From the NCBI GenBank assembly GCA_002494625.1, contig DACH01000016.1, positions 109,257 to 133,256 of the forward strand: a stretch of DNA of 24,000 bases, read 5' to 3'. Made by a program: the position numbers and the translations under genes. This document shows, in pieces, positions 10,909-21,972 of this stretch (positions within the stretch are counted from its first letter, which is position 1; each line of letters starts with the position of its first letter). The notes beneath the pieces are model-generated. The model saw nothing but the letters and a program-made list of their open reading frames with translations. It did no database searches and had not been told where the DNA came from. The stretch is from Archaeoglobus sp. UBA234. Its GTDB lineage: Archaea > Halobacteriota > Archaeoglobi > Archaeoglobales > Archaeoglobaceae.

Positions 10909-11622
10909 CTATATTTTTATAAGGGAGTCCATTTTTATACCTTTCTCTGTGATCTCGTAATTTTTTATGGTCTTGGGGACGAGAGCTTTTTTCAATTTTA
11001 GTATTTTAAACCTTCTCTGGATCTCGTTTTCGATCTCCTTTGTGGAGAGCTCAAAGACTCCTGTAGAGTGGTGTTTTATCTTGTTCTCTATGCTTTGCTC
11101 GTAGATTCCCTTTGTCATTAAGTTGAGAAAGACAGAATTTGTTTTCTTTGAGTATTTTGAAAGCTTTATCAGGAAATCTGAAACATCTTGAAGCTCGTAG
11201 TTTTCAATGAAATAGATAAGGTTGTTTATAATTATTCTGTCGAACATCTCGTTCTCGAGTATAATTTGTAAACTGCTGATTGGATCGTATATCACTCTCC
11301 TGATAAAACTCTTTAAATCTTCTTTGAATTCGATCCCCTCGCTTATTTGAGGGGAAAATAAACTCAGAATTGTAAGGTTATCAAACAGGTTTTTTGGATT
11401 TCTGAAATAAAGGTTGAAGTACTCTTTAGTCTCTTCGATTGTATCGTCAGTGGAGATGTAAAGAACATTCTCTCTGTTTTTTACACCTTCAAGTGCAAAA
11501 TGGAAAGTGAATATGTCCCCTCCACTTCCAGGCTCTTCAAATATCGTAATAATACTTCCACCCGGAATGCCACCATTCAAGTGGTCGTCAAGAGCATTTA
11601 TTCCTGTTCTATATATCCTCAT
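10909..11622 (-). CDS. KaiC/RadA-like RecA-superfamily protein with degenerate Walker A and B (predicted pseudo-ATPase)
   Basis: The N-terminus RTGINALDDHLNGGIPGGSIITIFEEPGSGGDIF matches the KaiC/ArlH pattern (TGI..LD..L.GGIP.GS...I.G.PG.GKT), but GKT is replaced by GGD (nt 11515-11532). The Walker B equivalent reads RIIINNL instead of hhhIDSL. The gene is divergent from arlB. Confidence 0.62.
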   Translation of the reverse strand: MRIYRTGINALDDHLNGGIPGGSIITIFEEPGSGGDIFTFHFALEGVKNRENVLYISTDDTIEETKEYFNLYFRNPKNLFDNLTILSLFSPQISEGIEFKEDLKSFIRRVIYDPISSLQIILENEMFDRIIINNLIYFIENYELQDVSDFLIKLSKYSKKTNSVFLNLMTKGIYEQSIENKIKHHSTGVFELSTKEIENEIQRRFKILKLKKALVPKTIKNYEITEKGIKMDSLIKI

Positions 11623-11874: not shown

Positions 11875-12462
11875 ATGTGGAAAAAACTGAAAAGGGATGA
11901 AAGGGCATTCACGGGACTGGAAGCAGCAATCGTTCTGATAGCCTTCGTGGTTGTTGCAGCGGTTTTCAGTTACGTCATGTTAGGAGCAGGTTTCTTCACC
12001 ACACAGAAGAGCCAGGAAGTTGTGCATACTGGAGTTCAGCAGGCAAGCAGCAGTATTGAACTTTCTGGTGATATAATCGGTGAAGGTAACACAACAGCAA
12101 ATAGGTTAGAGAAAGTAAGAGTGTTCATTCAGCTAACAGCAGGTGGAAATCCTGTAGATATCAGTAAGACTCTGATTACAGTGACAACAGACGATGCTCA
12201 CCATTCATTCACACTGGGCAGTGTGGCAGATTCAAGTTACTTCAAAGTAGCGAATAAGTATGGTGGCGACTCAGACAATCTGCTGGAAAAATTCGAGAAA
12301 TTTGAGCTTGAAATAAATGTCACAAAGGAGGCTTTGGGTTCAAGTACAGATATTACAGCAAATGAGAAATTCCAGGTTGAAATCAAACCACCTCAGGGTG
12401 CCTCTGTTACAGTGGTTAGGACAGTACCTGCAAGTATCGACTCTGTAATGACCCTATACTGA
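11875..12462 (+). CDS. arlB: Archaellin (archaeal flagellin) with class III (type IV pilin-like) signal peptide
   Basis: MWKKLKRDERA|FTGLEAAIVLIAFVVVAAVFSYVMLGAGFFTTQKSQEVVHTGVQQASSSIELSG has a charged leader, a predicted peptidase site after Arg-Ala, Glu at +5, and the conserved archaellin hydrophobic N-domain. SD GAGGTGA lies upstream. It is the first gene of the arl cluster. Confidence 0.88.
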   Translation: MWKKLKRDERAFTGLEAAIVLIAFVVVAAVFSYVMLGAGFFTTQKSQEVVHTGVQQASSSIELSGDIIGEGNTTANRLEKVRVFIQLTAGGNPVDISKTLITVTTDDAHHSFTLGSVADSSYFKVANKYGGDSDNLLEKFEKFELEINVTKEALGSSTDITANEKFQVEIKPPQGASVTVVRTVPASIDSVMTLY

Positions 12463-12507: not shown

Positions 12508-13251
12508 ATGGAGAACCTCGATCAGTCGATGATAGATGACATAATAGCAAGTGCTGATGAAGACTCACCAGAATCAAGAATAGATAGGCTTGAGGAGGAG
12601 ATCACCGAGATAAAAGGCTCCATAAAAAAACTGCTCCTCGATATTAGGGAGACTATAAACATTATTGAGAACCCCTTCCAGAGTATTCAGAGCATTGCAG
12701 AAAGTGTTGGCAGCGGTAAAGTTCAGGCTCTGCAGATAATTCCACCCGAATATTCTGAGCCAGAAAAAAATAATGAAGATATGGAAAAAGAAAGTGAACT
12801 CGATGAAGGGAAGGAAGAAAATATGCTGGAAGATAAACTTAATGTTCCAGAATTCACTCCGGAATTTAATAATCAGATGTGTCAGAGTAATTATGGTGTT
12901 AATAAGGCTGATAGATTCCAGGATCAGCCATTACAAGAACTGAAAAAGCTTGTAATTCCAATAAAACAGATTGACCCTTTGGCTTTATACAGTATCATAG
13001 AGTGGAGCAATGAAATGCTTGGTAGATACACCAAAGAAACCTTGGTTGAGCTTGTTGAAGTTTTTGAAATGGTTGGTTATATCTCCGGTGAGATTAAGGA
13101 AGTAGTTGTAAAGATAATTGAACTCCTGGATAGGGATAATAACCTTGATAATGCAATTGTAGATCTGTATAAGCTCTATAACATTTTAAATCCAGAGGAT
13201 GTATCCCTGGATTCTAAGGTTTTGAAACTTCTGCTTAATAATGGCAGATAG
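12508..13251 (+). CDS. arlCDE: Archaellum accessory protein of the ArlC/D/E (FlaC/D/E) type
   Basis: It has an N-terminal coiled coil (RIDRLEEEITEIKGSIKKLLLDIRETI), an acidic linker, and a C-terminal FlaD/E-like domain (LYSIIEWSNEMLGRYTKETLVELVEVFEMVGYISGEIKEVVVKIIELL). It lies right after arlB. Confidence 0.72.
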   Translation: MENLDQSMIDDIIASADEDSPESRIDRLEEEITEIKGSIKKLLLDIRETINIIENPFQSIQSIAESVGSGKVQALQIIPPEYSEPEKNNEDMEKESELDEGKEENMLEDKLNVPEFTPEFNNQMCQSNYGVNKADRFQDQPLQELKKLVIPIKQIDPLALYSIIEWSNEMLGRYTKETLVELVEVFEMVGYISGEIKEVVVKIIELLDRDNNLDNAIVDLYKLYNILNPEDVSLDSKVLKLLLNNGR

Positions 13252-13259
13252 GTGTCATT

Positions 13260-13736
13260 ATGGCGAGGGAGGTGATAACTACATCATTGCTCGTAATTGC
13301 AAGTGTTGTGGCGGTTGCAGCCTTGATTAATGCGGTATTTCCCTCTATCCATAAGATGACAAGCTCGTTTAACTCTTTAGCCAATAATATGGAAGAAAAA
13401 ATTGAGACCGATATGGATATAATATTCATAACCACAAACGGTAATTTCGTTTATTTCTGGGTAAAAAATACAGGCTCTTCCAAGGTTTCGCTGAGTTACT
13501 TCAACAATAGTGATGTCTTTATTTATTCGTCTTCAAACTACTGGCGTGCAGTTTTTGAAGGAACATCCAATCCAAGATGGAACTATACAGTTGAAAATGG
13601 GGATGGAGATGGATACTGGGACTCCGGAGAAACTATAAAGGTTACAGTTGAGTTTGATTCACTGCCAAGCGGTGAGTATAAGGTAACTCTCGTTTTGTAC
13701 AATGGCCTCTCTGTCTCGGATATTTTCTCGGTATAG
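13260..13736 (+). CDS. arlG: Archaellum protein ArlG (FlaG)-like
   Basis: The 158-aa protein has an N-terminal hydrophobic helix (MAREVITTSLLVIASVVAVAALINAVF) followed by a beta-rich soluble domain (FVYFWVKNTGSSKV). The G versus F assignment rests on N-terminus style (MA..E.I) and the G-F-H order known from Archaeoglobus and crenarchaea. Confidence 0.6.
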   Translation: MAREVITTSLLVIASVVAVAALINAVFPSIHKMTSSFNSLANNMEEKIETDMDIIFITTNGNFVYFWVKNTGSSKVSLSYFNNSDVFIYSSSNYWRAVFEGTSNPRWNYTVENGDGDGYWDSGETIKVTVEFDSLPSGEYKVTLVLYNGLSVSDIFSV

Positions 13737-13745
13737 GGTGATGGT

Positions 13746-14225
13746 ATGGGGATGGACACGGTGATAGTCTCAGTAGTTTCCATAGCTCTCATCCTTGTAG
13801 TTGCATACTCATTTGCAATGGAGACGAATAATCTGATAACATCAGCTCACAGTGGGTTCTCAAATCTCCAAAAATTAACTCTGAAGAAGATTAAAACCAA
13901 TATTGAGATTCAAAACATTTTGTGGAATGTAAGTGGTAATAACTACCTGAGGTTTAGTGTTGCAAATACAGGAGATACCAAACTGAGCAATTTTGAGCTG
14001 TGGGATGTGGTTGTTGTCAGAAACAACTCCACTCTGTACTTGAGTTATGGCTCAGACTGGATTGTTGATAGTATTTCCAACGATTCAATAAACCCGAATA
14101 TACTTGATCCCTTTGAAAGTGCACAGATTGAAGTTCGTATTCCTTTTGAAAGTGGTGAGAGTGTCATAATAAGGGTTTCCACTCCTAACGGGGTGGTTGC
14201 AACCCAGAGATACAATGTGGGGTGA
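13746..14225 (+). CDS. arlF: Archaellum protein ArlF (FlaF)-like
   Basis: The 159-aa protein has the N-terminal helix MGMDTVIVSVVSIALILVVAY and then a beta-sandwich-like domain (LRFSVANTGDTKLSNFELWDVVV). It directly precedes arlH, overlapping it by 4 nt if arlH starts at GTG 14222. Confidence 0.6.
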   Translation: MGMDTVIVSVVSIALILVVAYSFAMETNNLITSAHSGFSNLQKLTLKKIKTNIEIQNILWNVSGNNYLRFSVANTGDTKLSNFELWDVVVVRNNSTLYLSYGSDWIVDSISNDSINPNILDPFESAQIEVRIPFESGESVIIRVSTPNGVVATQRYNVG

Positions 14226-14230
14226 TATTA

Positions 14231-14956
14231 ATGATCGATAATATAGAGGAGGAAATTAAAAAATCGATACTTTCAAGTGGAAACAGCGAAATTGATAAAA
14301 AACTTGGAGAAGGAATTCCCTTAGGCTCACTGACTCTTATAGAAGGTGAGAATGACACTGGTAAAAGTGTACTCTGTCAGCAATTCATTTACGGAGGATT
14401 GAGGCAAGGACATAAGATTGCATATTATTCCACAGAGAACACAATCAAAAGTCTATTAATGCAGATGGAAAGTCTGAGCCTTGATGTTTCAGAGTTCTAT
14501 GCGTGGGGATATTTTCGAGTGTTTCCGGTGCATCTTGAGGGGGTTGACTGGACACCTAAGCAGATGAAAAGTATTCTCACGCTCGTTTCCGACCATATAA
14601 AGAGTATCAGAGAGAATGTGATAATGATTGATTCTCTGACAATGTTTACAACATATTCAGAGGAAGATGATATACTCGAATTTCTCACTAGGTTGAAGAA
14701 CCTGTGTGATAGGGGGAAGACCATTATGATAACACTGCATCAGCATGCGTTTAAAGAAGATACTCTTGTTAGGATAAGATCTGCCTGTGATTGTCATTTG
14801 TTTTTGAAAAAAGAACAGGTTGGAGACCGGTATGTGAGTGTGCTGGAGGTATCTAAAATAAGAGGAGCCAAGAAAACAACGGGGAATATAGTGAGCTTTG
14901 AAGTCCAGCCTGGTTTTGGGTTAAAGATAATCCCGATATCTCAGGCTCAGACCTAA
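14231..14956 (+). CDS. arlH: ArlH (FlaH), KaiC-like ATP-binding archaellum motor component
   Basis: It has EIDKKLGEGIPLGSLTLIEGENDTGKSVLCQQF (intact Walker A GENDTGKS), NVIMIDSLT (Walker B) and VLEVSKIRGA. The start is ATG 14231 (SD GGTGA 5 nt upstream) or GTG 14222. Confidence 0.88.
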   Translation: MIDNIEEEIKKSILSSGNSEIDKKLGEGIPLGSLTLIEGENDTGKSVLCQQFIYGGLRQGHKIAYYSTENTIKSLLMQMESLSLDVSEFYAWGYFRVFPVHLEGVDWTPKQMKSILTLVSDHIKSIRENVIMIDSLTMFTTYSEEDDILEFLTRLKNLCDRGKTIMITLHQHAFKEDTLVRIRSACDCHLFLKKEQVGDRYVSVLEVSKIRGAKKTTGNIVSFEVQPGFGLKIIPISQAQT

Positions 14957-14994: not shown

Positions 14995-16851
14995 GTGAAT
15001 AAATTGGCAACGGTCGTTGATGAGCTGAACTTAGGAATGGAGCAAAACAGATTTAAAAGTGGGATAGTTGCCAATTTCCCTTTTAGACCCAGAAAGATGG
15101 ATGATCATGATCATTCAAATCTCAAAACATGTAGTATATATAGAATACTTCCAAAGCTGATGAAAAAAGAAGTTGAAAGGAATATGCATTTGCTGGAATA
15201 TCTGCATGTTGTTCCGATGGATAAAATTGGTATTCCAAAGTTTATTCCCAAGCTTGAGAAAAAACATGGTGAAATCGAGAATCCAAATTTGATTTATCAG
15301 GCAAGTGATCAGATATATATTCACATCTATACGGACAAAAACGATGTCAGGAATTTTTACATTCCAATTGAACCCACTCTTTTAACTGGAGTTGATCTGT
15401 TACTTAAAGAGGTAGAAGTTAAGCTTGTAGATTTCCTCACAGAAATCGACTTCGATCCTGAGGATAAAGAGGAGAAGGAAAGAATCCTCAAAGAAGCTCT
15501 GAAAGAAATCTGTGTGATAACCAATGGAAGAAAAGTCGATGATTTTATAGAAAATGAAGAGGGTATTTTAAAACTTTTTATGAGGAATAAAAATAATGGT
15601 AAAAATGGGCATCATATTTATGTCACAAGAGAGCAGTATAAGGCACTGGAATATGCCATCATAAGGGATAAAGTTGGGTTGGGGGTTCTCGAACCATATA
15701 TAAGGGATAAACATATTGAAGATATCACATGCAATGGTTTAGGACCTATATTTATTGAACACAAGGTGTTCAAGGGTCTTAAGAGCATAATTGAATTTAG
15801 AGAGGAAGAAACTTTGAATAAGTTTATTATCAGACTTGCTGAAAGAATTGGGAAGCCGATCACTTATAAAGATCCGATAGTTGATGCAACCCTCCCTGAT
15901 GGCTCGAGAATCAATATCGTTTTTGGCAATGATGTGAGCAAAAACGGTAGTAATTTTACAATCAGAAAGTTCAATGAGACTCCTTTCAGTGTTCTGCAGG
16001 TCATTGAGAGCGGGGCTATGGACTACATGATTGCAGGGTATCTATGGTTGTTGATTTCAGAGGGGATGTCTGGATTTATATGTGGTGAAACTGCGAGTGG
16101 TAAAACCACATCGCTGAATGCAATTACTGCTTTTATATCTCCGGATGCGAAGATAGTCTCAATAGAAGACACTCCCGAACTACAGGTCCCACATAAAAAC
16201 TGGACAAGAGAGGTAACTCGAGGAAGTACGAGAGGTGGATCCTTAGGTGAAGGAAGTGGATCAGATGTAACAATGTTTGATTTGTTAAAGGCAGCTCTAA
16301 GACAGAGACCAAACTATATACTTGTTGGTGAGATTAGAGGTGTTGAAGGTAATATAGCCTTCCAGGCTATGCAAACTGGACATCCAGTTATGTCAACATT
16401 TCATGCTGCAACAGTAGAAAAACTAATTCAAAGGCTAACGGCTGAGCCGATAAGTGTTCCTAAAACCTACATCGATAATCTGAATTTCGTGCTGATTCAG
16501 AGCGCTGTTAGAAGACCTGATGGGCGGTTAGTGAGGAGGGTATTGAGTGTTAATGAGATCGTTGGATATAACCCACAAAAAGGTGGTGTATCCTTCATTG
16601 AGGCTTTTTCCTGGGACCCTGTGACGGATTCCTTTGTTTTTGGTGCATATGGTAGCTCTTATTTGCTTGAGCAGAAAATTGCAACAAGACTTGGAATTCC
16701 AACCAATAAGAAGAAGGTAATCTATGAAGAAGTTGAAAAGAGAGCAAAAATACTTCAAAAACTGCATGAGGAGGGTATTACTAATTTCTACGACTTTTTC
16801 AACACATTAGCCAAGATAAGAAAGAGTGGCATGCTGAAAATAGAATTTTAG
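14995..16851 (+). CDS. arlI: ArlI (FlaI), archaellum assembly/motor ATPase (type II/IV secretion NTPase family)
   Basis: It has Walker A GETASGKTTSLNA, SIEDTPEL, the Walker B region NYILVGEIRGVEG, and the His box GHPVMSTFHA. The start is uncertain (GTG 14995, TTG 15004 or ATG 15037). Confidence 0.93.
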   Translation: MNKLATVVDELNLGMEQNRFKSGIVANFPFRPRKMDDHDHSNLKTCSIYRILPKLMKKEVERNMHLLEYLHVVPMDKIGIPKFIPKLEKKHGEIENPNLIYQASDQIYIHIYTDKNDVRNFYIPIEPTLLTGVDLLLKEVEVKLVDFLTEIDFDPEDKEEKERILKEALKEICVITNGRKVDDFIENEEGILKLFMRNKNNGKNGHHIYVTREQYKALEYAIIRDKVGLGVLEPYIRDKHIEDITCNGLGPIFIEHKVFKGLKSIIEFREEETLNKFIIRLAERIGKPITYKDPIVDATLPDGSRINIVFGNDVSKNGSNFTIRKFNETPFSVLQVIESGAMDYMIAGYLWLLISEGMSGFICGETASGKTTSLNAITAFISPDAKIVSIEDTPELQVPHKNWTREVTRGSTRGGSLGEGSGSDVTMFDLLKAALRQRPNYILVGEIRGVEGNIAFQAMQTGHPVMSTFHAATVEKLIQRLTAEPISVPKTYIDNLNFVLIQSAVRRPDGRLVRRVLSVNEIVGYNPQKGGVSFIEAFSWDPVTDSFVFGAYGSSYLLEQKIATRLGIPTNKKKVIYEEVEKRAKILQKLHEEGITNFYDFFNTLAKIRKSGMLKIEF

Positions 16852-16860
16852 GTGTCAGAC

Positions 16861-18489
16861 ATGGAATTAGCCAACATCAAAAACCTCGCTATGAAATACA
16901 GAAAGGAGAAGAAACTCAAGGAGTCTCCCGGATTATTTGAAAGACTCAGAAAAATTAAAGAAGGCCTTTATTTGGATAATGATCTGCTTTTTATTCTCAC
17001 TTATATGGCGTCAATCTCAACAGCCCAGATTAGTAGAGATAAAATTTTTGAGAAGACCTCTGAGAAGGAAGAATATGCTCCAAGTACTTATTTCAGAAAG
17101 GTTAAAGATCTGGCGCAGAAATGGCATTATGATTATGCAACAGCATGTGAACTCATAGCAAAAAAGATAAAACATGAAAATTTAAAAAAATTGTTCAATC
17201 GGTTCTCAAACGCCATATCTGCTGGTGAACCCGATAGAGAATTTTTGGAAAAGGAATGGAAAGTTTTTAAGACAATAAGAAAAGATGAGTTTGAAAGAAG
17301 CCTTGAGTCCTTGAAGAAGTGGTCAGATGCATATACTGCTCTGATGGTATCAACTTCTTTGATATCAATAATAATCCTTCTTTCGGTTATAATATATAAT
17401 ATCGGGGATCCTGCTCGGACTTTATTCACAGTTGCTGGTCTTGTGTTCGCGATCTCTCTTTTTGGAGTTGGTTTTTTGTTTAAATCTGTTCCCAAGGACA
17501 TCAAGACGCATAACTTGAAAATAAAATCGAGAGAGCAAACAATTGTGTATAAATGGATGCCAGTCAGTTATTTACTTTCAGCAATTTTTGTACTATCAAT
17601 AACCGTTGTACCTGTTTTTGTTAAACCTGACTTATTTGTTTTTAATGATCTGGATTTTAAGGGACTGGGCTTGATTGCAGCGGGTTTAACCATGTTTCCA
17701 GTGGGATGGATTGGGAGAAAAGATGATATAAAAATAAGCAAAAGAGATGAGAGCTATACTGTCTTCATTAGAAGTCTTGGCGCCATAGTTAGTGGAGCAG
17801 GGGTCACAATCGCAGAAGCACTTACAAAAATTGACCAGAAAAATCTTGGAGAACTCAAAGAACTATGCTATCAACTTTACAAAAGATTGTCAATGGGTCT
17901 GGATCATCGTTTGAGCTGGGAGAGGTTCATTGGAGAAAGTGGGAGCTACCTGATTCATAAATTAACTAGTGTTTTTGTAGATGCTGTAGATCTTGGAGGA
18001 GATGCCGATACTATTGGAGAAATCGTTAGTTCATCAAATCTCGAGCTGGTACTCTTGAGAAAGAAGCGGGATTTAATTTCTTCGGGATTTATTAGTCTCG
18101 TTATTCCATTACACGTGGCAATGGTATCACTTCTGATGTTTATCAGCCAGATTCTGACAATTTTTTCTGAGCTAATTACATCGCTTTTCACGGAATATAG
18201 TATATCTGGTGATAAACTTGAGGAAATTCCAGGAGGTATATCTGGGATGAATTTGGGAATTTTTTCAGGCGTTCCGTTGGATGTGCTTGCTCAGTACACA
18301 GTAGTGGTAGTAATTCTTGTAACTATAGCAAATACTCTCGCTGCAAAGATCGTTAAGGGGGGAGCAAATTATATGGCTCTGTATTATGGCTCGATTCTTT
18401 TCACACTGTCTGGAATTATGATGATAGTTATCCCACCGTTAGTTGATATGGCATTTTCATTCCCATCTTTTGTAGAGGGAGGTGCATAA
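16861..18489 (+). CDS. arlJ: ArlJ (FlaJ), polytopic archaellum membrane platform protein (GspF/PilC-like)
   Basis: The roughly 540-aa protein has two cytoplasmic helical domains alternating with clusters of TM helices. It follows arlI immediately. ATG 16861 has TAGGTG 6 nt upstream, and GTG 16852 is an alternative start. Confidence 0.87.
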   Translation: MELANIKNLAMKYRKEKKLKESPGLFERLRKIKEGLYLDNDLLFILTYMASISTAQISRDKIFEKTSEKEEYAPSTYFRKVKDLAQKWHYDYATACELIAKKIKHENLKKLFNRFSNAISAGEPDREFLEKEWKVFKTIRKDEFERSLESLKKWSDAYTALMVSTSLISIIILLSVIIYNIGDPARTLFTVAGLVFAISLFGVGFLFKSVPKDIKTHNLKIKSREQTIVYKWMPVSYLLSAIFVLSITVVPVFVKPDLFVFNDLDFKGLGLIAAGLTMFPVGWIGRKDDIKISKRDESYTVFIRSLGAIVSGAGVTIAEALTKIDQKNLGELKELCYQLYKRLSMGLDHRLSWERFIGESGSYLIHKLTSVFVDAVDLGGDADTIGEIVSSSNLELVLLRKKRDLISSGFISLVIPLHVAMVSLLMFISQILTIFSELITSLFTEYSISGDKLEEIPGGISGMNLGIFSGVPLDVLAQYTVVVVILVTIANTLAAKIVKGGANYMALYYGSILFTLSGIMMIVIPPLVDMAFSFPSFVEGGA

Positions 18490-18490
18490 A

Positions 18491-19360
18491 ATGGATGTGG
18501 CGTTAGTAGTGGGTATCGTCATAGCAGGGGTTACGATTGGAGCTGTGACGATATACGATAGGTTTAAACAGGAAAAAAAGTTGGAATTTAATATATCCAA
18601 AAAAATAGTTCCAAATAAAGCTAAAATAAAGACTGAGTTTTTAAATAGGATTTTTGATAGGTTTGCCAGTTTCAGGATGAAAAGAGAAAGTGGAACTGAA
18701 AAAAAAGATGTGAGTGGATTAAAGGGTAAGTTTGCTCGATTTGGTACACTGTTCGGGAGATCAAAGAGTTTTAAAGGCTTTAGCTTATTTTCACCATTTG
18801 GATTCTTTAAATCAAGGCAAGAAAAGAAATTAAAAGAGATTGATGAGAAACTTGAAAAAGTTGTCAATGAAAGCCCGAGTTACAGGAAAAAAGAAGTTGA
18901 AATAGATGATTCGGAAGTTAAAAAAATACTAGAAGAAAAATTGGACACTTTCAATGTGGATGATAATCTGTTAAGTGAGATGGAAACTGCAGAGAGAGTT
19001 GATGACCTTAAAAGGTACAGTGACGAAATCGAATCTGCAGAAAATTTGAATTCAGATGTTGTTGTTGATACAGATGATTTGGATTTTGGTATTGATATTG
19101 CAAACATTGAAGATTCGAACGAAGAACTGGATGACGAATCTGTTGATGATAATCTTGGCTTAGAAATGGAAACAGTTGAAGTAGACTTTGATGACAAAGA
19201 TGAGTTGCTATCGTCTTTGCAAAAGGAAATATCCGTAAAAAAGGAAGAAAAACTAGATTTATTGAGAGATTTAAGAAATGAAAATTTGGATCTAAAAGAA
19301 TTAAAAAGAGAGCTTGAGGAGGTACTGGGAACACTCAGACTATATGCCAAAAGCTCCTGA
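18491..19360 (+). CDS. Unrecognised membrane-anchored protein: one N-terminal TM helix, a basic Phe/Gly-rich segment, and a long acidic coiled-coil-like tail
   Basis: ATG 18491 lies 2 nt after the arlJ stop, with GGAGGTG 8 nt upstream (GTG 18482 is an alternative start). The product starts MDVALVVGIVIAGVTIGAVTIY, then includes FARFGTLFGRSKSFKGFSLFSPFGFFKSRQ, followed by an Asp/Glu-rich region. I recognise no family. Confidence 0.6.
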   Translation: MDVALVVGIVIAGVTIGAVTIYDRFKQEKKLEFNISKKIVPNKAKIKTEFLNRIFDRFASFRMKRESGTEKKDVSGLKGKFARFGTLFGRSKSFKGFSLFSPFGFFKSRQEKKLKEIDEKLEKVVNESPSYRKKEVEIDDSEVKKILEEKLDTFNVDDNLLSEMETAERVDDLKRYSDEIESAENLNSDVVVDTDDLDFGIDIANIEDSNEELDDESVDDNLGLEMETVEVDFDDKDELLSSLQKEISVKKEEKLDLLRDLRNENLDLKELKRELEEVLGTLRLYAKSS

Positions 19361-19372
19361 AAGGGGTAACAT

Positions 19373-21142
19373 ATGGTTGAAAAAGAGAGTGTTGATAAAT
19401 TAGCAGTTGTAAAATGGTTTTTTCTGATCTTTACATTAATTTCAATTTTAGTTTTTGAATTATCAGCTGGATTATATTATTTAAAATGGAATGAAGAAAA
19501 GAGTATCTTAGAAACATCAGAAAGAGAAAGAGTCGAAAACGCGAAAGAGTATATTTCCAGTAGTCTATCATCATCATCTATCGATTTATTTGTTCTTTCT
19601 GAAAATAATGTATTTAAAGAAATTAAGAATAATGATGTGTTGAGAAATGATTTGATTTTTAGAATTTATATGTTAATCAAACTGAACGAAGAGTATGAGA
19701 GAATTGTTCTATTTAATGAAACTGGAGGGCAGATTTTGAGCATAACTGATGGAGGTTGGCATTCAAAGGAAGATTTGCGGGACAGAAAGTATCTCATTGA
19801 ACCGATGATTAAATCCCTCATTGACGAAGCTTTAAAACAGGAAGGAACGAATATGCTTTTTATTCCGGCTGATGAAAACGATGGACATCATGTCATATGG
19901 TTTGCAACCTCTGTAGCAGATTCGGATAACAGAAATGTTATAGCTCTTGAATATTCTGTTGACGAACTGATTTCCAGCCTTGCAAAAAGATTTGGTAGCG
20001 ACGATAGACGGTTCATTTTTTTAGATTCTAATGGGAGAATACACATTATAAAAAATAAAAATCAGGATTGGGACACAGTTGATGATGGTAAGATCATGTA
20101 TTATCTCTCTGAGGGGTGGAATATCATAGAAACCAAAGAAACAGGTCAGTTCTATATAGAAGATGGTCTGGTTACATTTACGACGATCTATCCACTCCAC
20201 TCTGCAAGTAGATACCTGAAAAATCTTGAATTCCCGAATAATAGTTATTTGATCTCTCAGAATAACACCAACGATTTAAGCTGGAAATTGGTCAGTGTCA
20301 TACCTAAGGAAAAGATAGACTCAATACGAAATAGTATCCTTATGGACTTTGTACTTTTTGATGCAATCATCCTTGGAGTTACAGGTTCACTCTCTTTGCC
20401 TCTTTCTTATTTTATAGAAAGGCGAAAGAAAGCCCAGAAAGAAATAGAAATGTATGCGGCGAGACTTGAAGAGAAAAACAAGATGCTTACACTTTTTCTT
20501 GATATAATACGACACGACTTAAAAAACCCTATCAGCGTTGCGTATGGTTACATCGATCTAATGGATTCTGAAAGTACCAGTGATGATGACAAAACCATGT
20601 TCGAAAAAATTAGAAAACAACTAAAAAAGGCGATAGAAATAATGGATAATGCGAAAAAACTCTCTAAGGTAGAAAATATAAAAGAACTTGAGAAAAAAGA
20701 AATAGATCTCAGGCTGTTAATTGATGAATTAATCACCAATTTTAAACTGAACTCAGAAGAACCTTCAATTAAAATTGAGAATAACATAGAGAGGAATGTG
20801 AAGATTATGGCGAATGACCTAATTGAGGATGTTTTTGCAAATCTGATATCAAATGCCATTAAGTATGCTGGTGGGGACAAAACAATTAGGATTGATTGTA
20901 TCGAAACAGATGAGTATATCAGAGTAAGGGTAATAGATTACGGTCCTGGCGTGGACGATGAGAGTAAAGAAGTAATTTTTGATAGATTCGAGAGGGGAGG
21001 TTTAACAGATATAACAGGGACCGGACTCGGTCTTGCGATTTCTAAGAAAATAGTTGAGCTTCATTCTGGGAAGATTTGGGTTGAAGACAACCCAGAAGGT
21101 GGAGCAATTTTTGTGGTAGAATTACCCAAAAGAACAGTATAG
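19373..21142 (+). CDS. Sensor histidine kinase (TM - ~280-aa extracytoplasmic domain - TM - HisKA - HATPase_c)
   Basis: TM1 spans about residues 11-37 and TM2 about 321-347. The H-box is FLDIIRHDLKNPISV (His381, nt 20513-20515), the N-box is LISNAIKYAGGD, G1 is IDYGPGV and G2 is GTGLGLAISKKIVELHSGKIWVE. The periplasmic domain has the size of a double-Cache/PDC sensor, but the fold is unverified. Confidence 0.9.
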   Translation: MVEKESVDKLAVVKWFFLIFTLISILVFELSAGLYYLKWNEEKSILETSERERVENAKEYISSSLSSSSIDLFVLSENNVFKEIKNNDVLRNDLIFRIYMLIKLNEEYERIVLFNETGGQILSITDGGWHSKEDLRDRKYLIEPMIKSLIDEALKQEGTNMLFIPADENDGHHVIWFATSVADSDNRNVIALEYSVDELISSLAKRFGSDDRRFIFLDSNGRIHIIKNKNQDWDTVDDGKIMYYLSEGWNIIETKETGQFYIEDGLVTFTTIYPLHSASRYLKNLEFPNNSYLISQNNTNDLSWKLVSVIPKEKIDSIRNSILMDFVLFDAIILGVTGSLSLPLSYFIERRKKAQKEIEMYAARLEEKNKMLTLFLDIIRHDLKNPISVAYGYIDLMDSESTSDDDKTMFEKIRKQLKKAIEIMDNAKKLSKVENIKELEKKEIDLRLLIDELITNFKLNSEEPSIKIENNIERNVKIMANDLIEDVFANLISNAIKYAGGDKTIRIDCIETDEYIRVRVIDYGPGVDDESKEVIFDRFERGGLTDITGTGLGLAISKKIVELHSGKIWVEDNPEGGAIFVVELPKRTV

Positions 21143-21160: not shown

Positions 21161-21514
21161 ATGTTTGGTAAAGGAAGAGTTCTGATCGTCGAAGATGATT
21201 TTGCTGTTGTGGAAATGCTTAAACTGATGTTGTCGGAGTATCATGTAGAGGTTGCGACAAATGGTTTCGAGGCTGTTGAAAAGTACAAGACATTCGAACC
21301 AGATGTTGTGCTTATGGATATAGTGATGCCGGTGATGGATGGAATTCAGGCTACAAAAGAGATTTTAAGTATTGATAAAAACGCGAAGGTTATTGGAATT
21401 ACTGCCTTCGGAAAGCATAAAGGAGATGAGATGCTTGAGGCTGGAGCCGTTCATATATTGGAGAAACCGATTACAAAAAAGAGCCTTACAAATTCGATTG
21501 ATAGGTATTTATAG
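21161..21514 (+). CDS. Stand-alone CheY-like response-regulator receiver, paralogue 3 (adjacent to the kinase)
   Basis: The 117-aa protein has IVEDDF, VVLMDIVMPVMDG (Asp53), GITAF and LEKPIT. It starts 18 nt downstream of the kinase stop, with SD GGGGTGAGAGAGG. Confidence 0.88.
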   Translation: MFGKGRVLIVEDDFAVVEMLKLMLSEYHVEVATNGFEAVEKYKTFEPDVVLMDIVMPVMDGIQATKEILSIDKNAKVIGITAFGKHKGDEMLEAGAVHILEKPITKKSLTNSIDRYL

Positions 21515-21537
21515 CTATTAAAAAATATTGCACTATC

Positions 21538-21558
21538 TTATTTTAATCAATAATTTTT
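21538..21558 (+). terminator. T-rich, AT-rich region after the receiver gene; candidate end of the long arl transcription unit
   Basis: The sequence is cttaTTTTaatcaataaTTTTTatt. These are the first T-runs after the tight arlJ-to-receiver gene string. Confidence 0.35.
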
Positions 21559-21614
21559 ATTAAGTTATCTCTAATATCTTACTTATGTTATTAGTGTTTT
21601 AGTTTTATTTAATT

Positions 21615-21634
21615 TAATTACAGAATTGTAATTA
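21615..21634. promoter_or_regulatory. Inverted repeat TAATTAC-N6-GTAATTA (extendable to 10-bp arms, 21613-21636) upstream of the wHTH gene; candidate operator
   Basis: The repeat is seen directly as tTTAATTACAgaatTGTAATTAAa. It is followed after exactly 18 nt by the TATA-like TTAAATAT (21653-21660), which lies 30 nt before ATG 21691. Confidence 0.55.
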
Positions 21635-21690
21635 AAAGTAAAATAGTAACAGTTAAATATAATTGTTATTGTTATCATGATGGGGGTGAT

Positions 21691-21972
21691 ATGATGCTCG
21701 AGGTAGAGTATGAGAAACAATCTGAAGCATTGCTGAAAGTGATATCTCGAAGTGGTATGAGTTCAATTCTGAGAAGCCTTGAAAAAAATCCACAAAGGTT
21801 CTCTCAGTTGATGTTTAAGGCAAAATTAAACCCTGGAATCCTCGATCGGCATTTGAAATCTCTGATGGAAATTGGGGCTGTGGAAAAAGATGGAGATACG
21901 TATATACTCACCAATAGGGGTCACAGACTCGTTAAGGCTTTGTACAGTCTGTTTGAAATATATATGGATTGA
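21691..21972 (+). CDS. Small winged-helix (ArsR/MarR-like) transcriptional regulator
   Basis: The 93-aa protein contains SILRSLEKNPQRFSQLMFKAKLNPGILDRHLKSLMEIGAVEKDGDTYILTNRGHRL, which fits helix-turn-helix plus a beta-hairpin wing. SD GGGGGTGAT lies upstream. Confidence 0.7.
   Translation: MMLEVEYEKQSEALLKVISRSGMSSILRSLEKNPQRFSQLMFKAKLNPGILDRHLKSLMEIGAVEKDGDTYILTNRGHRLVKALYSLFEIYMD

Follow-up and report, generated by a model that had tools for sequence, protein, structure and literature searches.

The gene discussed here lies at positions 18491 to 19360, plus strand, of a 24,000-nucleotide stretch of DNA from Archaeoglobus sp. UBA234 (contig DACH01000016.1, positions 109,257 to 133,256). 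The whole stretch is called the window throughout. The gene is the last arl-type gene of an archaellum operon, and it belongs to a conserved and so far unnamed family found at the end of archaellum operons of the arl2 type in Archaeoglobi, Methanoregula and related euryarchaea. This phyletic statement is based on loci retrieved via family proteins or related ArlJ proteins. The operon, and the two genes that follow it in the window, are organized as listed.

11875-12462, plus strand: arlB, identified by Pfam
12508-13251, plus strand: ArlD/E-like gene, matched by PF04659 (Arch_fla_DE) at sub-threshold level only, at equivalent positions in three orthologues
13260-13736, plus strand: gene with ArlG as best match (NCBIfam, E=3e-12, below cutoff)
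13746-14225, plus strand: gene with ArlF as best match (NCBIfam, E=2.6e-6, below cutoff)
14222-14956, plus strand: arlH, from its Pfam KaiC-type ATPase domain (PF06745) and its operon position
14995-16851, plus strand: arlI (NCBIfam, 725 bits)
16852..18489, plus strand: arlJ, encoding the archaellum platform protein, directly upstream of the gene under study (NCBIfam ArlJ/FlaJ NF004703, 772 bits, cutoff 570; Pfam T2SSF)
18478..18484, plus strand: Shine-Dalgarno-like GGAGGTG within the end of arlJ, read from the sequence and separated by 6 nucleotides (nt) from the ATG
18491..19360, plus strand: gene under study, from the list of open reading frames (ORFs) and the sequence; ATG at 18491, TGA at 19358-19360, 289 amino acids (aa)
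19373..21142, plus strand: sensor histidine kinase (Pfam HisKA and HATPase_c), starting 12 nt past the stop codon of the gene under study
21161..21514, plus strand: stand-alone CheY-like receiver (Pfam Response_reg; best NCBIfam match CheY_Halo, 84 bits, cutoff 200), found after an 18-nt gap from the kinase

The genes run in the order arlB, arlD/E-like, arlG, arlF, arlH, arlI, arlJ and gene under study. Since arlG is ahead of arlF, the cluster is of the arl2 type, as in Archaeoglobus fulgidus. The arl2-type layout, in which arlG precedes arlF and arlD/E are distant, has been described for some Euryarchaeota in a 2021 review (PMC10117864). A preliminary description of this DNA, made from the sequence alone, had noted an ArlC/D/E-type gene in the same operon, and the gene at 12508-13251 bears this out; an ArlD/E-like gene coexists with the family gene at every locus reaching that far. 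Translational coupling to arlJ had also been proposed. The arlJ stop codon (TAA, 18487-18489) and the ATG at 18491 are separated by 1 nt, and this spacing, together with the GGAGGTG tract, is compatible with coupling. Start codons of family members are similarly placed from -8 to +13 nt relative to the arlJ stop in 62 of 65 non-redundant cases.

Association with arlJ is constant. In all 33 family-seeded loci that reach upstream, the gene is co-directional with arlJ and follows it, either directly or with a DUF4352 gene in between. A metagenome scan seeded with the ArlJ profile, considering loci with at least 700 nt downstream of arlJ and meant as a less biased test, retrieved the family in 60 of 63 loci, whose ArlJ proteins are 34-77% identical to that of the window. 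The three exceptions are contigs with only 907-1056 nt downstream, too short for the 420-aa form of the protein. A weak family match (E=7.6e-5) follows arlJ also in locus L118. The prospect that the gene could be absent next to arlJ in all relatives, raised in the preliminary description, is contradicted by both counts. The DUF4352 (PF11611) gene, coding for about 204 aa, is located between arlJ and the family gene in some lineages (L004:7924-8538, L011:9385-9996, L014, L015, L022-L024, L027, L029), and its product may be a further lineage-specific archaellum-associated protein. An isolated set formed by arlI, arlJ, the DUF4352 gene and the family gene was found in a Methanosarcinales metagenome-assembled genome (MAG; L011, L012; 5960-10663). 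No archaellin, arlD/E, arlF/G or arlH is nearby, and the set is flanked by lipid and glycosyltransferase genes; it is either a split arl cluster, a remnant, or a set that has been repurposed.

Seven relatives of the window protein were retrieved by single-sequence search, and 49 by profile search, including proteins from A. fulgidus, A. neptunius, Geoglobus acetivorans, G. ahangari and a Methanosarcinales MAG. When 1.84 billion representatives were searched exhaustively with HMMER, 79 clusters were obtained at E<=1e-3, and a further profile search reached a distant clade of longer proteins, that of Methanoregula, with more than 360 members, all denominated "hypothetical protein" in the source. 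Homologues span from 96% to about 25% identity. The closest named genome, Archaeoglobales archaeon B5_G16, shows 42% identity for the family protein and 75% for ArlJ. Against the closest relative (96% identity), the ratio of non-synonymous to synonymous substitution rates (dN/dS) is 0.35 for the whole protein, 0.12 for its C-terminal hairpin and 0.10 for ArlJ, values that are indicative and derive from 22 substitutions only. Conservation and synteny confirm, far beyond chance, that the ORF is a real gene, and we are highly confident that it encodes a genuine archaellum-operon protein.

The following features have been recognized in the window protein.

18497..18556, plus strand: N-terminal transmembrane (TM) helix, about residues 3-22, from hydropathy and AlphaFold2
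18557..18826, plus strand: basic juxtamembrane linker, residues 23-112, net charge +16 by charge count
18833..18865, plus strand: conserved motif 1, KEIDEKLEKVV, residues 115-125, in a predicted helix spanning residues 103-126 (predicted local distance difference test, pLDDT, ~81-82)
18869..19186, plus strand: acidic tether, predicted to be disordered, residues 127-232, with D+E far above K+R and pLDDT mostly 38-59
18965..18991, plus strand: conserved motif 2, NLLSEMETA, residues 159-167, core of a first repeat copy (18956-19006)
19142..19195, plus strand: second motif copy, VDDNLGLEMETVEVDFDD, residues 218-235, the last residues of which overlap the start of the C-terminal module
19187..19354, plus strand: conserved C-terminal helical hairpin, residues 233-288, AlphaFold2 helices 233-263 and 268-288, pLDDT 84-90

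AlphaFold2 models have been obtained for the window protein (23 sequences) and for the A. fulgidus orthologue (63 sequences). They share the same layout, with good confidence limited to the TM helix, the motif-1 helix and the hairpin. Mean pLDDT is 61, and the predicted template modelling score is 0.16-0.18, and therefore no globular fold is present. The N-terminal TM helix anticipated in the preliminary description is well supported: the sole hydrophobic peak is at residues 3-21 (Kyte-Doolittle 19-residue mean 2.62), and AlphaFold2 places a helix at residues 3-27 with pLDDT about 82 (82-87 for the TM helix across the two models). One to three N-terminal hydrophobic segments are found in 222 of 231 family proteins; members of the Methanoregula clade, about 420 aa long, have two N-terminal TM segments. 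According to the positive-inside rule, the N-terminus, only two residues long before the TM helix, is predicted to be outside and the remainder of the protein to be cytoplasmic, and the conserved parts are predicted to be cytoplasmic in both the one-TM and the two-TM forms. A TM-less subfamily (P0080, P0086, P0102; L116:3612-4319) carries two copies of a K-E-I-D-x-Q-L-E-E-L helix before the conserved hairpin. The TM-less gene overlaps the end of arlJ, and the L116 form follows arlI-arlJ.

A basic stretch rich in Phe, Gly, Ser and Lys followed by an acidic tail had been described, and both are found, since residues 23-112 carry the positive charge given above and residues 113-289 have a net charge of -33. 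The Phe/Gly/Ser/Lys-rich stretch, FARFGTLFGRSKSFKGFSLFSPFGFFKSRQ, corresponds to residues 81-110 (nt 18731-18820) and lies within the basic linker, where pLDDT is mostly below 50. The juxtamembrane segment is basic in the family and variable in length. About 85 alignment columns of the linker are occupied only in the window protein, P0001, P0002 and P0003, and most family members are devoid of the Phe/Gly/Ser/Lys stretch; the linker, stretch included, is for the most part a lineage-specific insertion of about 85 residues. The C-terminal two thirds have a median net charge of -35 across the 231 family proteins.

In the alignments motif 1 recurs across clades, L121 being invariant and D118 and V124 nearly so. 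In motif 2, fitting the consensus NLLxEMETA, residues L160, E163 and M164 are nearly invariant, and a short helix is predicted at this site in both AlphaFold2 models. Going by a comparison of consensus sequences rather than by an alignment, the Methanoregula counterpart may be D-P-F-L-S-L-S-G-x-E-F-D-x-G-L-L. Length and composition of the tether differ by clade, as it is acidic in Archaeoglobi, and both Ala/Pro/Gly-rich and acidic in Methanoregula. The hairpin, about 55 residues long, holds nearly all the invariant positions (F233, D237, L239, K245, D256, L257, L258, R259, L261, E270, E274, L275) and is kept out to Methanoregula-type members. It fits the pattern F-D-D-x-D-x-L-L-S-S-L-x-K-E-I...K-L-D-L-L-R-D-L-R, turn, E-L-K-R-E-L-E-E-V-L, and this predicted element is the signature of the family. 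The heptad-like, coiled-coil end indicated in the preliminary description is predicted to be helical, and takes in the AlphaFold2 model the form of a hairpin rather than of an extended coiled coil of the ArlX type.

A duplicated module had also been reported in the tail. The two copies are found at 18956-19006 and 19142-19195, but their similarity is of marginal significance: the best self-alignment, of residues 149-168 with residues 211-230, has a BLOSUM62 score of 58, which is reached by 20 of 500 tail shuffles and by 7 of 500 local shuffles. The repeat at the DNA level measures just 15 nt (18955-18969 and 19141-19155). Only the first copy is conserved in the family; the second is not conserved outside the window and P0001, and is already diverging in P0001, a relative 96% identical. 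The module is specific to the lineage of the window, and not a feature of the family. An ancient internal repeat of the family was considered and rejected, as none was seen in other members.

The preliminary description had recognized no known family, and this holds after more extensive searches. No precomputed Pfam domain is present on any family member found, and no significant match came from scanning the window protein and two distant orthologues with Pfam and NCBIfam, noise-level matches being DUF6435 (18.7 bits, cutoff 26.9) and Ribonuc_2-5A (E=0.022). A sequence-profile search of PDB returned only BRIL/cytochrome b562 noise (E>=0.037), and Foldseek found 0 matches to the window model in PDB, as expected for a mostly disordered model. 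Rosetta-stone fusions were not found, the longest member among those listed by the exhaustive search being 442 aa, and no extra Pfam domain is present in the members checked. Supplementary Table S4 of a 2016 census of archaeal type IV pili gives no arCOG for the A. fulgidus gene, which it places at NC_000917 954206..954850, immediately downstream of FlaJ. A literature search for AF1047/AF_1047, the A. fulgidus orthologue by gene count, retrieved antibody catalogue numbers only and nothing relevant. Nor is the family mentioned in two preprints of 2026 dealing with archaeal type IV filament systems and archaellum/chemosensory coupling, in the Chloroflexota archaellum paper or in the EarA paper.

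Genes located downstream of the family gene vary as follows.

Window and L007 only: histidine kinase, receiver, small helix-turn-helix (HTH) gene
Archaeoglobi: gene with a 4-nt overlap, for a pseudo-HisKA protein that lacks an ATPase domain and has Asp where the phospho-acceptor would be
Methanoregula: cheF-cheY-cheB-cheA
L118: unrelated genes on the opposite strand, none signalling-related

At other loci an HTH gene or unrelated housekeeping genes come next. Because downstream genes are variable, the constant partner of the family is arlJ, or the arl operon, and not a signalling gene. Kinase and receiver accompany the family only in the window and in L007, its 96% relative, and are outside the conserved unit. 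The preliminary description had viewed the protein as an extra scaffold or adapter, possibly a docking surface for the downstream receiver. Considering linkage, architecture and the coexisting ArlD/E-like gene, scaffold or adapter is the most sensible reading. The docking function is not supported: that receiver is absent downstream elsewhere, and so cannot be what the conserved regions of the protein evolved to bind.

The pseudo-HisKA protein of Archaeoglobi, about 225 aa long (A. fulgidus L010:10642-11313; L004:9163-9867; many other loci), features an N-terminal domain without family match, a HisKA-like helix pair and the H-box DRLRNPL, in which Asp replaces His. It has the look of a pseudo-kinase that is conserved beside the archaellum operon. 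It corresponds to arCOG02369 in the 2016 census, and MCP-cheW-cheF-cheY come after it. A conserved partnership with the downstream histidine kinase has been rejected: the A. fulgidus neighbour shares with the window kinase only the dimerization and histidine phosphotransfer region (31% over 72 residues), and has neither an ATPase domain nor the phospho-accepting His, which is replaced by Asp.

In the lineage of the window the two-component pair is possibly co-transcribed with the arl operon, an arrangement seen only in the window and L007. A 176-nt AT-rich spacer with T runs (21515-21690) is found 3' of the receiver. Next to it, positions 21691-21972 encode a small winged-helix protein (NCBIfam Sso10a family, 43 bits, below cutoff; Pfam HTH_45/HTH_5 in L007). 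Small winged-helix genes recur near the end of the arl cluster, on either strand, also in L008, L011, L022, L028, L031, L036 and L042, and their products are candidate local regulators. At the other end of the operon, just upstream of arlB and divergent from it, a second KaiC/ArlH-like gene (10909-11622, minus strand) is found, which is kept in L007. Its product matches the Pfam KaiC-type ATPase at E=4e-24 and NCBIfam ArlH at 42 bits, below cutoff.

We tentatively favour the hypothesis that the family protein acts as an accessory tether at the membrane, or as a scaffold, in euryarchaeal archaellum motors of the arl2 type. Expression coupled to that of ArlJ, probably at the translational level, would set the membrane helix beside the ArlJ platform, and the charged juxtamembrane segment would hold the rest of the chain on the cytoplasmic side. 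The flexible tether would allow the hairpin, and perhaps also the two short motifs, to capture a conserved cytoplasmic component of the motor, for which ArlH, ArlI and the soluble ArlD/E-like ring are the likeliest candidates, and to keep it at the membrane-embedded platform. The family protein would thereby supply in trans the membrane anchor that ArlX has built in and that ArlC/D/E are without. A role in recruitment or retention is more likely than rigid torque bearing, because the tether is disordered. Synteny with arlJ, the predicted architecture and the alignments, where conservation is concentrated in the hairpin and the tether is variable, are in favour of a tether. The near-invariance of the hairpin from Archaeoglobi to Methanoregula points to a slowly evolving partner, as ArlH, ArlI or ArlJ, rather than to the fast-evolving ArlD/E-like protein. 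The Methanosarcinales locus, having only arlI, arlJ and the DUF4352 gene upstream, would point to the same type of partner.

Several observations weigh against the tether hypothesis. A tether of 100-250 disordered residues is unable to pass torque rigidly and is a poor stator anchor. In many genomes the gene is at the arl/che boundary, a position equally compatible with a signalling role. Binding to any motor partner is putative, and the partners named above are candidates. The ArlJ-seeded test made use of sequence patterns from family-linked ArlJ proteins. At HMMER sensitivity no family member turned up among the model archaella of Methanococcus, Pyrococcus, Haloferax and Sulfolobus, and therefore the family is not a universal requirement. 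Finally, P0080, P0086 and P0102 have no TM segment, so that not every family member has a membrane anchor.

The closest term of comparison is ArlX (FlaX) of Crenarchaeota, to which the preliminary description had likened the protein. Both are found in arl2-type clusters and have a single N-terminal TM helix, a cytoplasmic remainder and helical, heptad-like C-terminal elements; binding of ArlI and ArlH and stabilization of ArlJ, functions of ArlX, would be the kind of role proposed for the family. In contrast, ArlX has a large coiled-coil, ring-forming domain, whereas the family proteins are predicted to be mostly disordered, apart from a hairpin some 55 residues long and a single helix of about 24 residues. 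In addition, the family gene is located after arlJ and not between arlB and arlG, and is present in addition to the ArlD/E-like gene, not in its stead. Pfam and NCBIfam, even at permissive E-values, revealed no relationship in sequence to ArlX or ArlCDE. No match to PF04659 (Arch_fla_DE) or to the FlaC domain was found at E up to 10 in the window protein, P0025 and P0084. Comparison with ArlX was made through 23 ArlD/E-like proteins from these loci, a type of protein connected with ArlX in a census; hhalign gave a probability of 0.13%. A divergent ArlC/D/E paralogue has been rejected on this value, and the resemblance to ArlX is limited to a TM anchor joined to cytoplasmic helices.

Euryarchaeal ArlC/D/E are, like the family proteins, accessory cytoplasmic proteins of the same operon, fast-evolving and often missed by domain models. 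Unlike these, they are soluble and carry the Arch_fla_DE domain; the family proteins have a TM anchor, and the operon has its own ArlD/E-like gene. In bacterial type II secretion and type IV pili, the bitopic partners of the assembly platform, GspL/GspM and PilN/PilO, are small proteins that cross the membrane once; they are encoded together with the platform protein, the homologue of ArlJ, and the ATPase, and link cytoplasmic and membrane parts. They have a folded periplasmic domain, whereas in the window protein only two residues are predicted to be outside and the functional part to be cytoplasmic and largely disordered. The PDB profile search and Foldseek detected no sequence or structural match to these bacterial platform partners. 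Set apart from ArlX, ArlC/D/E and the bacterial bitopic partners, the family has been classed as a new group of accessory proteins in a machine already known.

A more specific version of the tether hypothesis, and a doubtful one, is that the family provides the membrane anchor so far missing for the cytoplasmic ring of arl2-type euryarchaea, the TM helix resting on ArlJ and the hairpin holding an ArlD/E-like/ArlH assembly. ArlJ is unstable without ArlX, the C-terminus of which binds ArlI and ArlH, while ArlC/D/E have no TM domain, and no membrane anchor is known for the euryarchaeal ring (PMC10117864, PMC8978795). What holds this ring is described as unclear in a review, where the polar cap is invoked as a substitute (PMC8978795). 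If the family is the anchor, the function of ArlX would be split over two genes, one for a membrane tether and one for a soluble ring protein. This would explain how a ring devoid of TM segments remains at the platform, and would predict similar unrecognized tethers in other euryarchaea.

An unlikely alternative is that the protein works as a signal-input adapter, acidic tail and hairpin docking CheF, a CheY-like receiver or a (pseudo-)histidine kinase at the motor and linking sensory input to ArlJ/ArlI; this is the docking idea of the preliminary description in a more general form. The location of the gene at the arl/che junction is in accordance with this. In the Methanoregula clade cheF-cheY-cheB-cheA are directly next; in Archaeoglobi the pseudo-HisKA gene overlaps by 4 nt and is followed by MCP-cheW-cheF-cheY; in the window, kinase and CheY-like receiver follow at 12- and 18-nt gaps. 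The conserved tract DDL(I/L)SSL, moreover, may resemble acidic amphipathic CheY-binding peptides such as the C-terminus of CheZ and the N-terminus of FliM, which bind the alpha4-beta5-alpha5 face of a receiver. However, the hairpin hardly varies between clades but the downstream signalling gene does, no such gene is found downstream in L118 and L034, and the Methanosarcinales locus has only arlI, arlJ and the DUF4352 gene upstream. In every case the coupling is with arlJ, and in none with a che gene.

Strict adjacency and coupling to arlJ would also be explained if the protein were an electrostatic regulator or an assembly chaperone, its polyacidic tail binding conserved basic cytoplasmic loops of ArlJ and competing with, or timing, the docking of acidic ArlI N-termini, or protecting ArlJ during insertion. 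The median charge of -35 in the C-terminal two thirds of the 231 proteins is in favour, as is the proposal that positively charged ArlJ loops bind ArlI (PMC8978795, PMC12488501). The best-conserved element is, however, a mixed-charge amphipathic hairpin and not the acidic tract, which is poorly conserved and partly Ala/Pro/Gly-rich in Methanoregula. We regard this explanation as less likely still than signal input.

More speculative, and improbable, is a link between the membrane at the motor and the cytoplasmic polar cap, or a charged brush that organizes the archaellated pole. A long tether ending in a conserved, putative distal binding module would suit such a function. Yet the family was not found, at HMMER sensitivity, in Thermococcales or Halobacteria, where polar caps have been described, and no polar cap has been reported for family-carrying lineages in the literature examined. 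A random coil of 100-250 residues would besides be expected to span far less than 35-44 nm.

Last, that the ORF is spurious and results from the biased composition of the spacer after arlJ (E, K, L and D make up 47% of the residues of the window protein, and long antisense ORFs are present) is refuted by conservation and deserves practically no credit, as hundreds of homologues, the most distant at about 25% identity, share motifs, reading frame and position, dN/dS is below 1, and the predicted TM helix and hairpin are conserved. The two antisense ORFs, on the minus strand opposite the gene (18457-18867, 136 aa; 18880-19350, 156 aa), are Ser/Phe/Leu-rich, and the second is open also in L007. 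Both are best explained as artefacts, by-products of a GAA/GAT-rich sense strand.

In current models the archaellum is made of ArlB, ArlC/D/E or ArlX, ArlF, ArlG, ArlH, ArlI and ArlJ plus the peptidase, and the family represents an extra gene. A membrane-tethered protein coupled to arlJ, with no Pfam, NCBIfam or arCOG assignment, is found in Archaeoglobus fulgidus, Geoglobus, Methanoregula and many uncultured relatives. The family is worth adding to the models by which arl clusters are recognized and classified, and is a concrete candidate for either the anchor of the ring or a new regulatory contact of the ArlJ platform.

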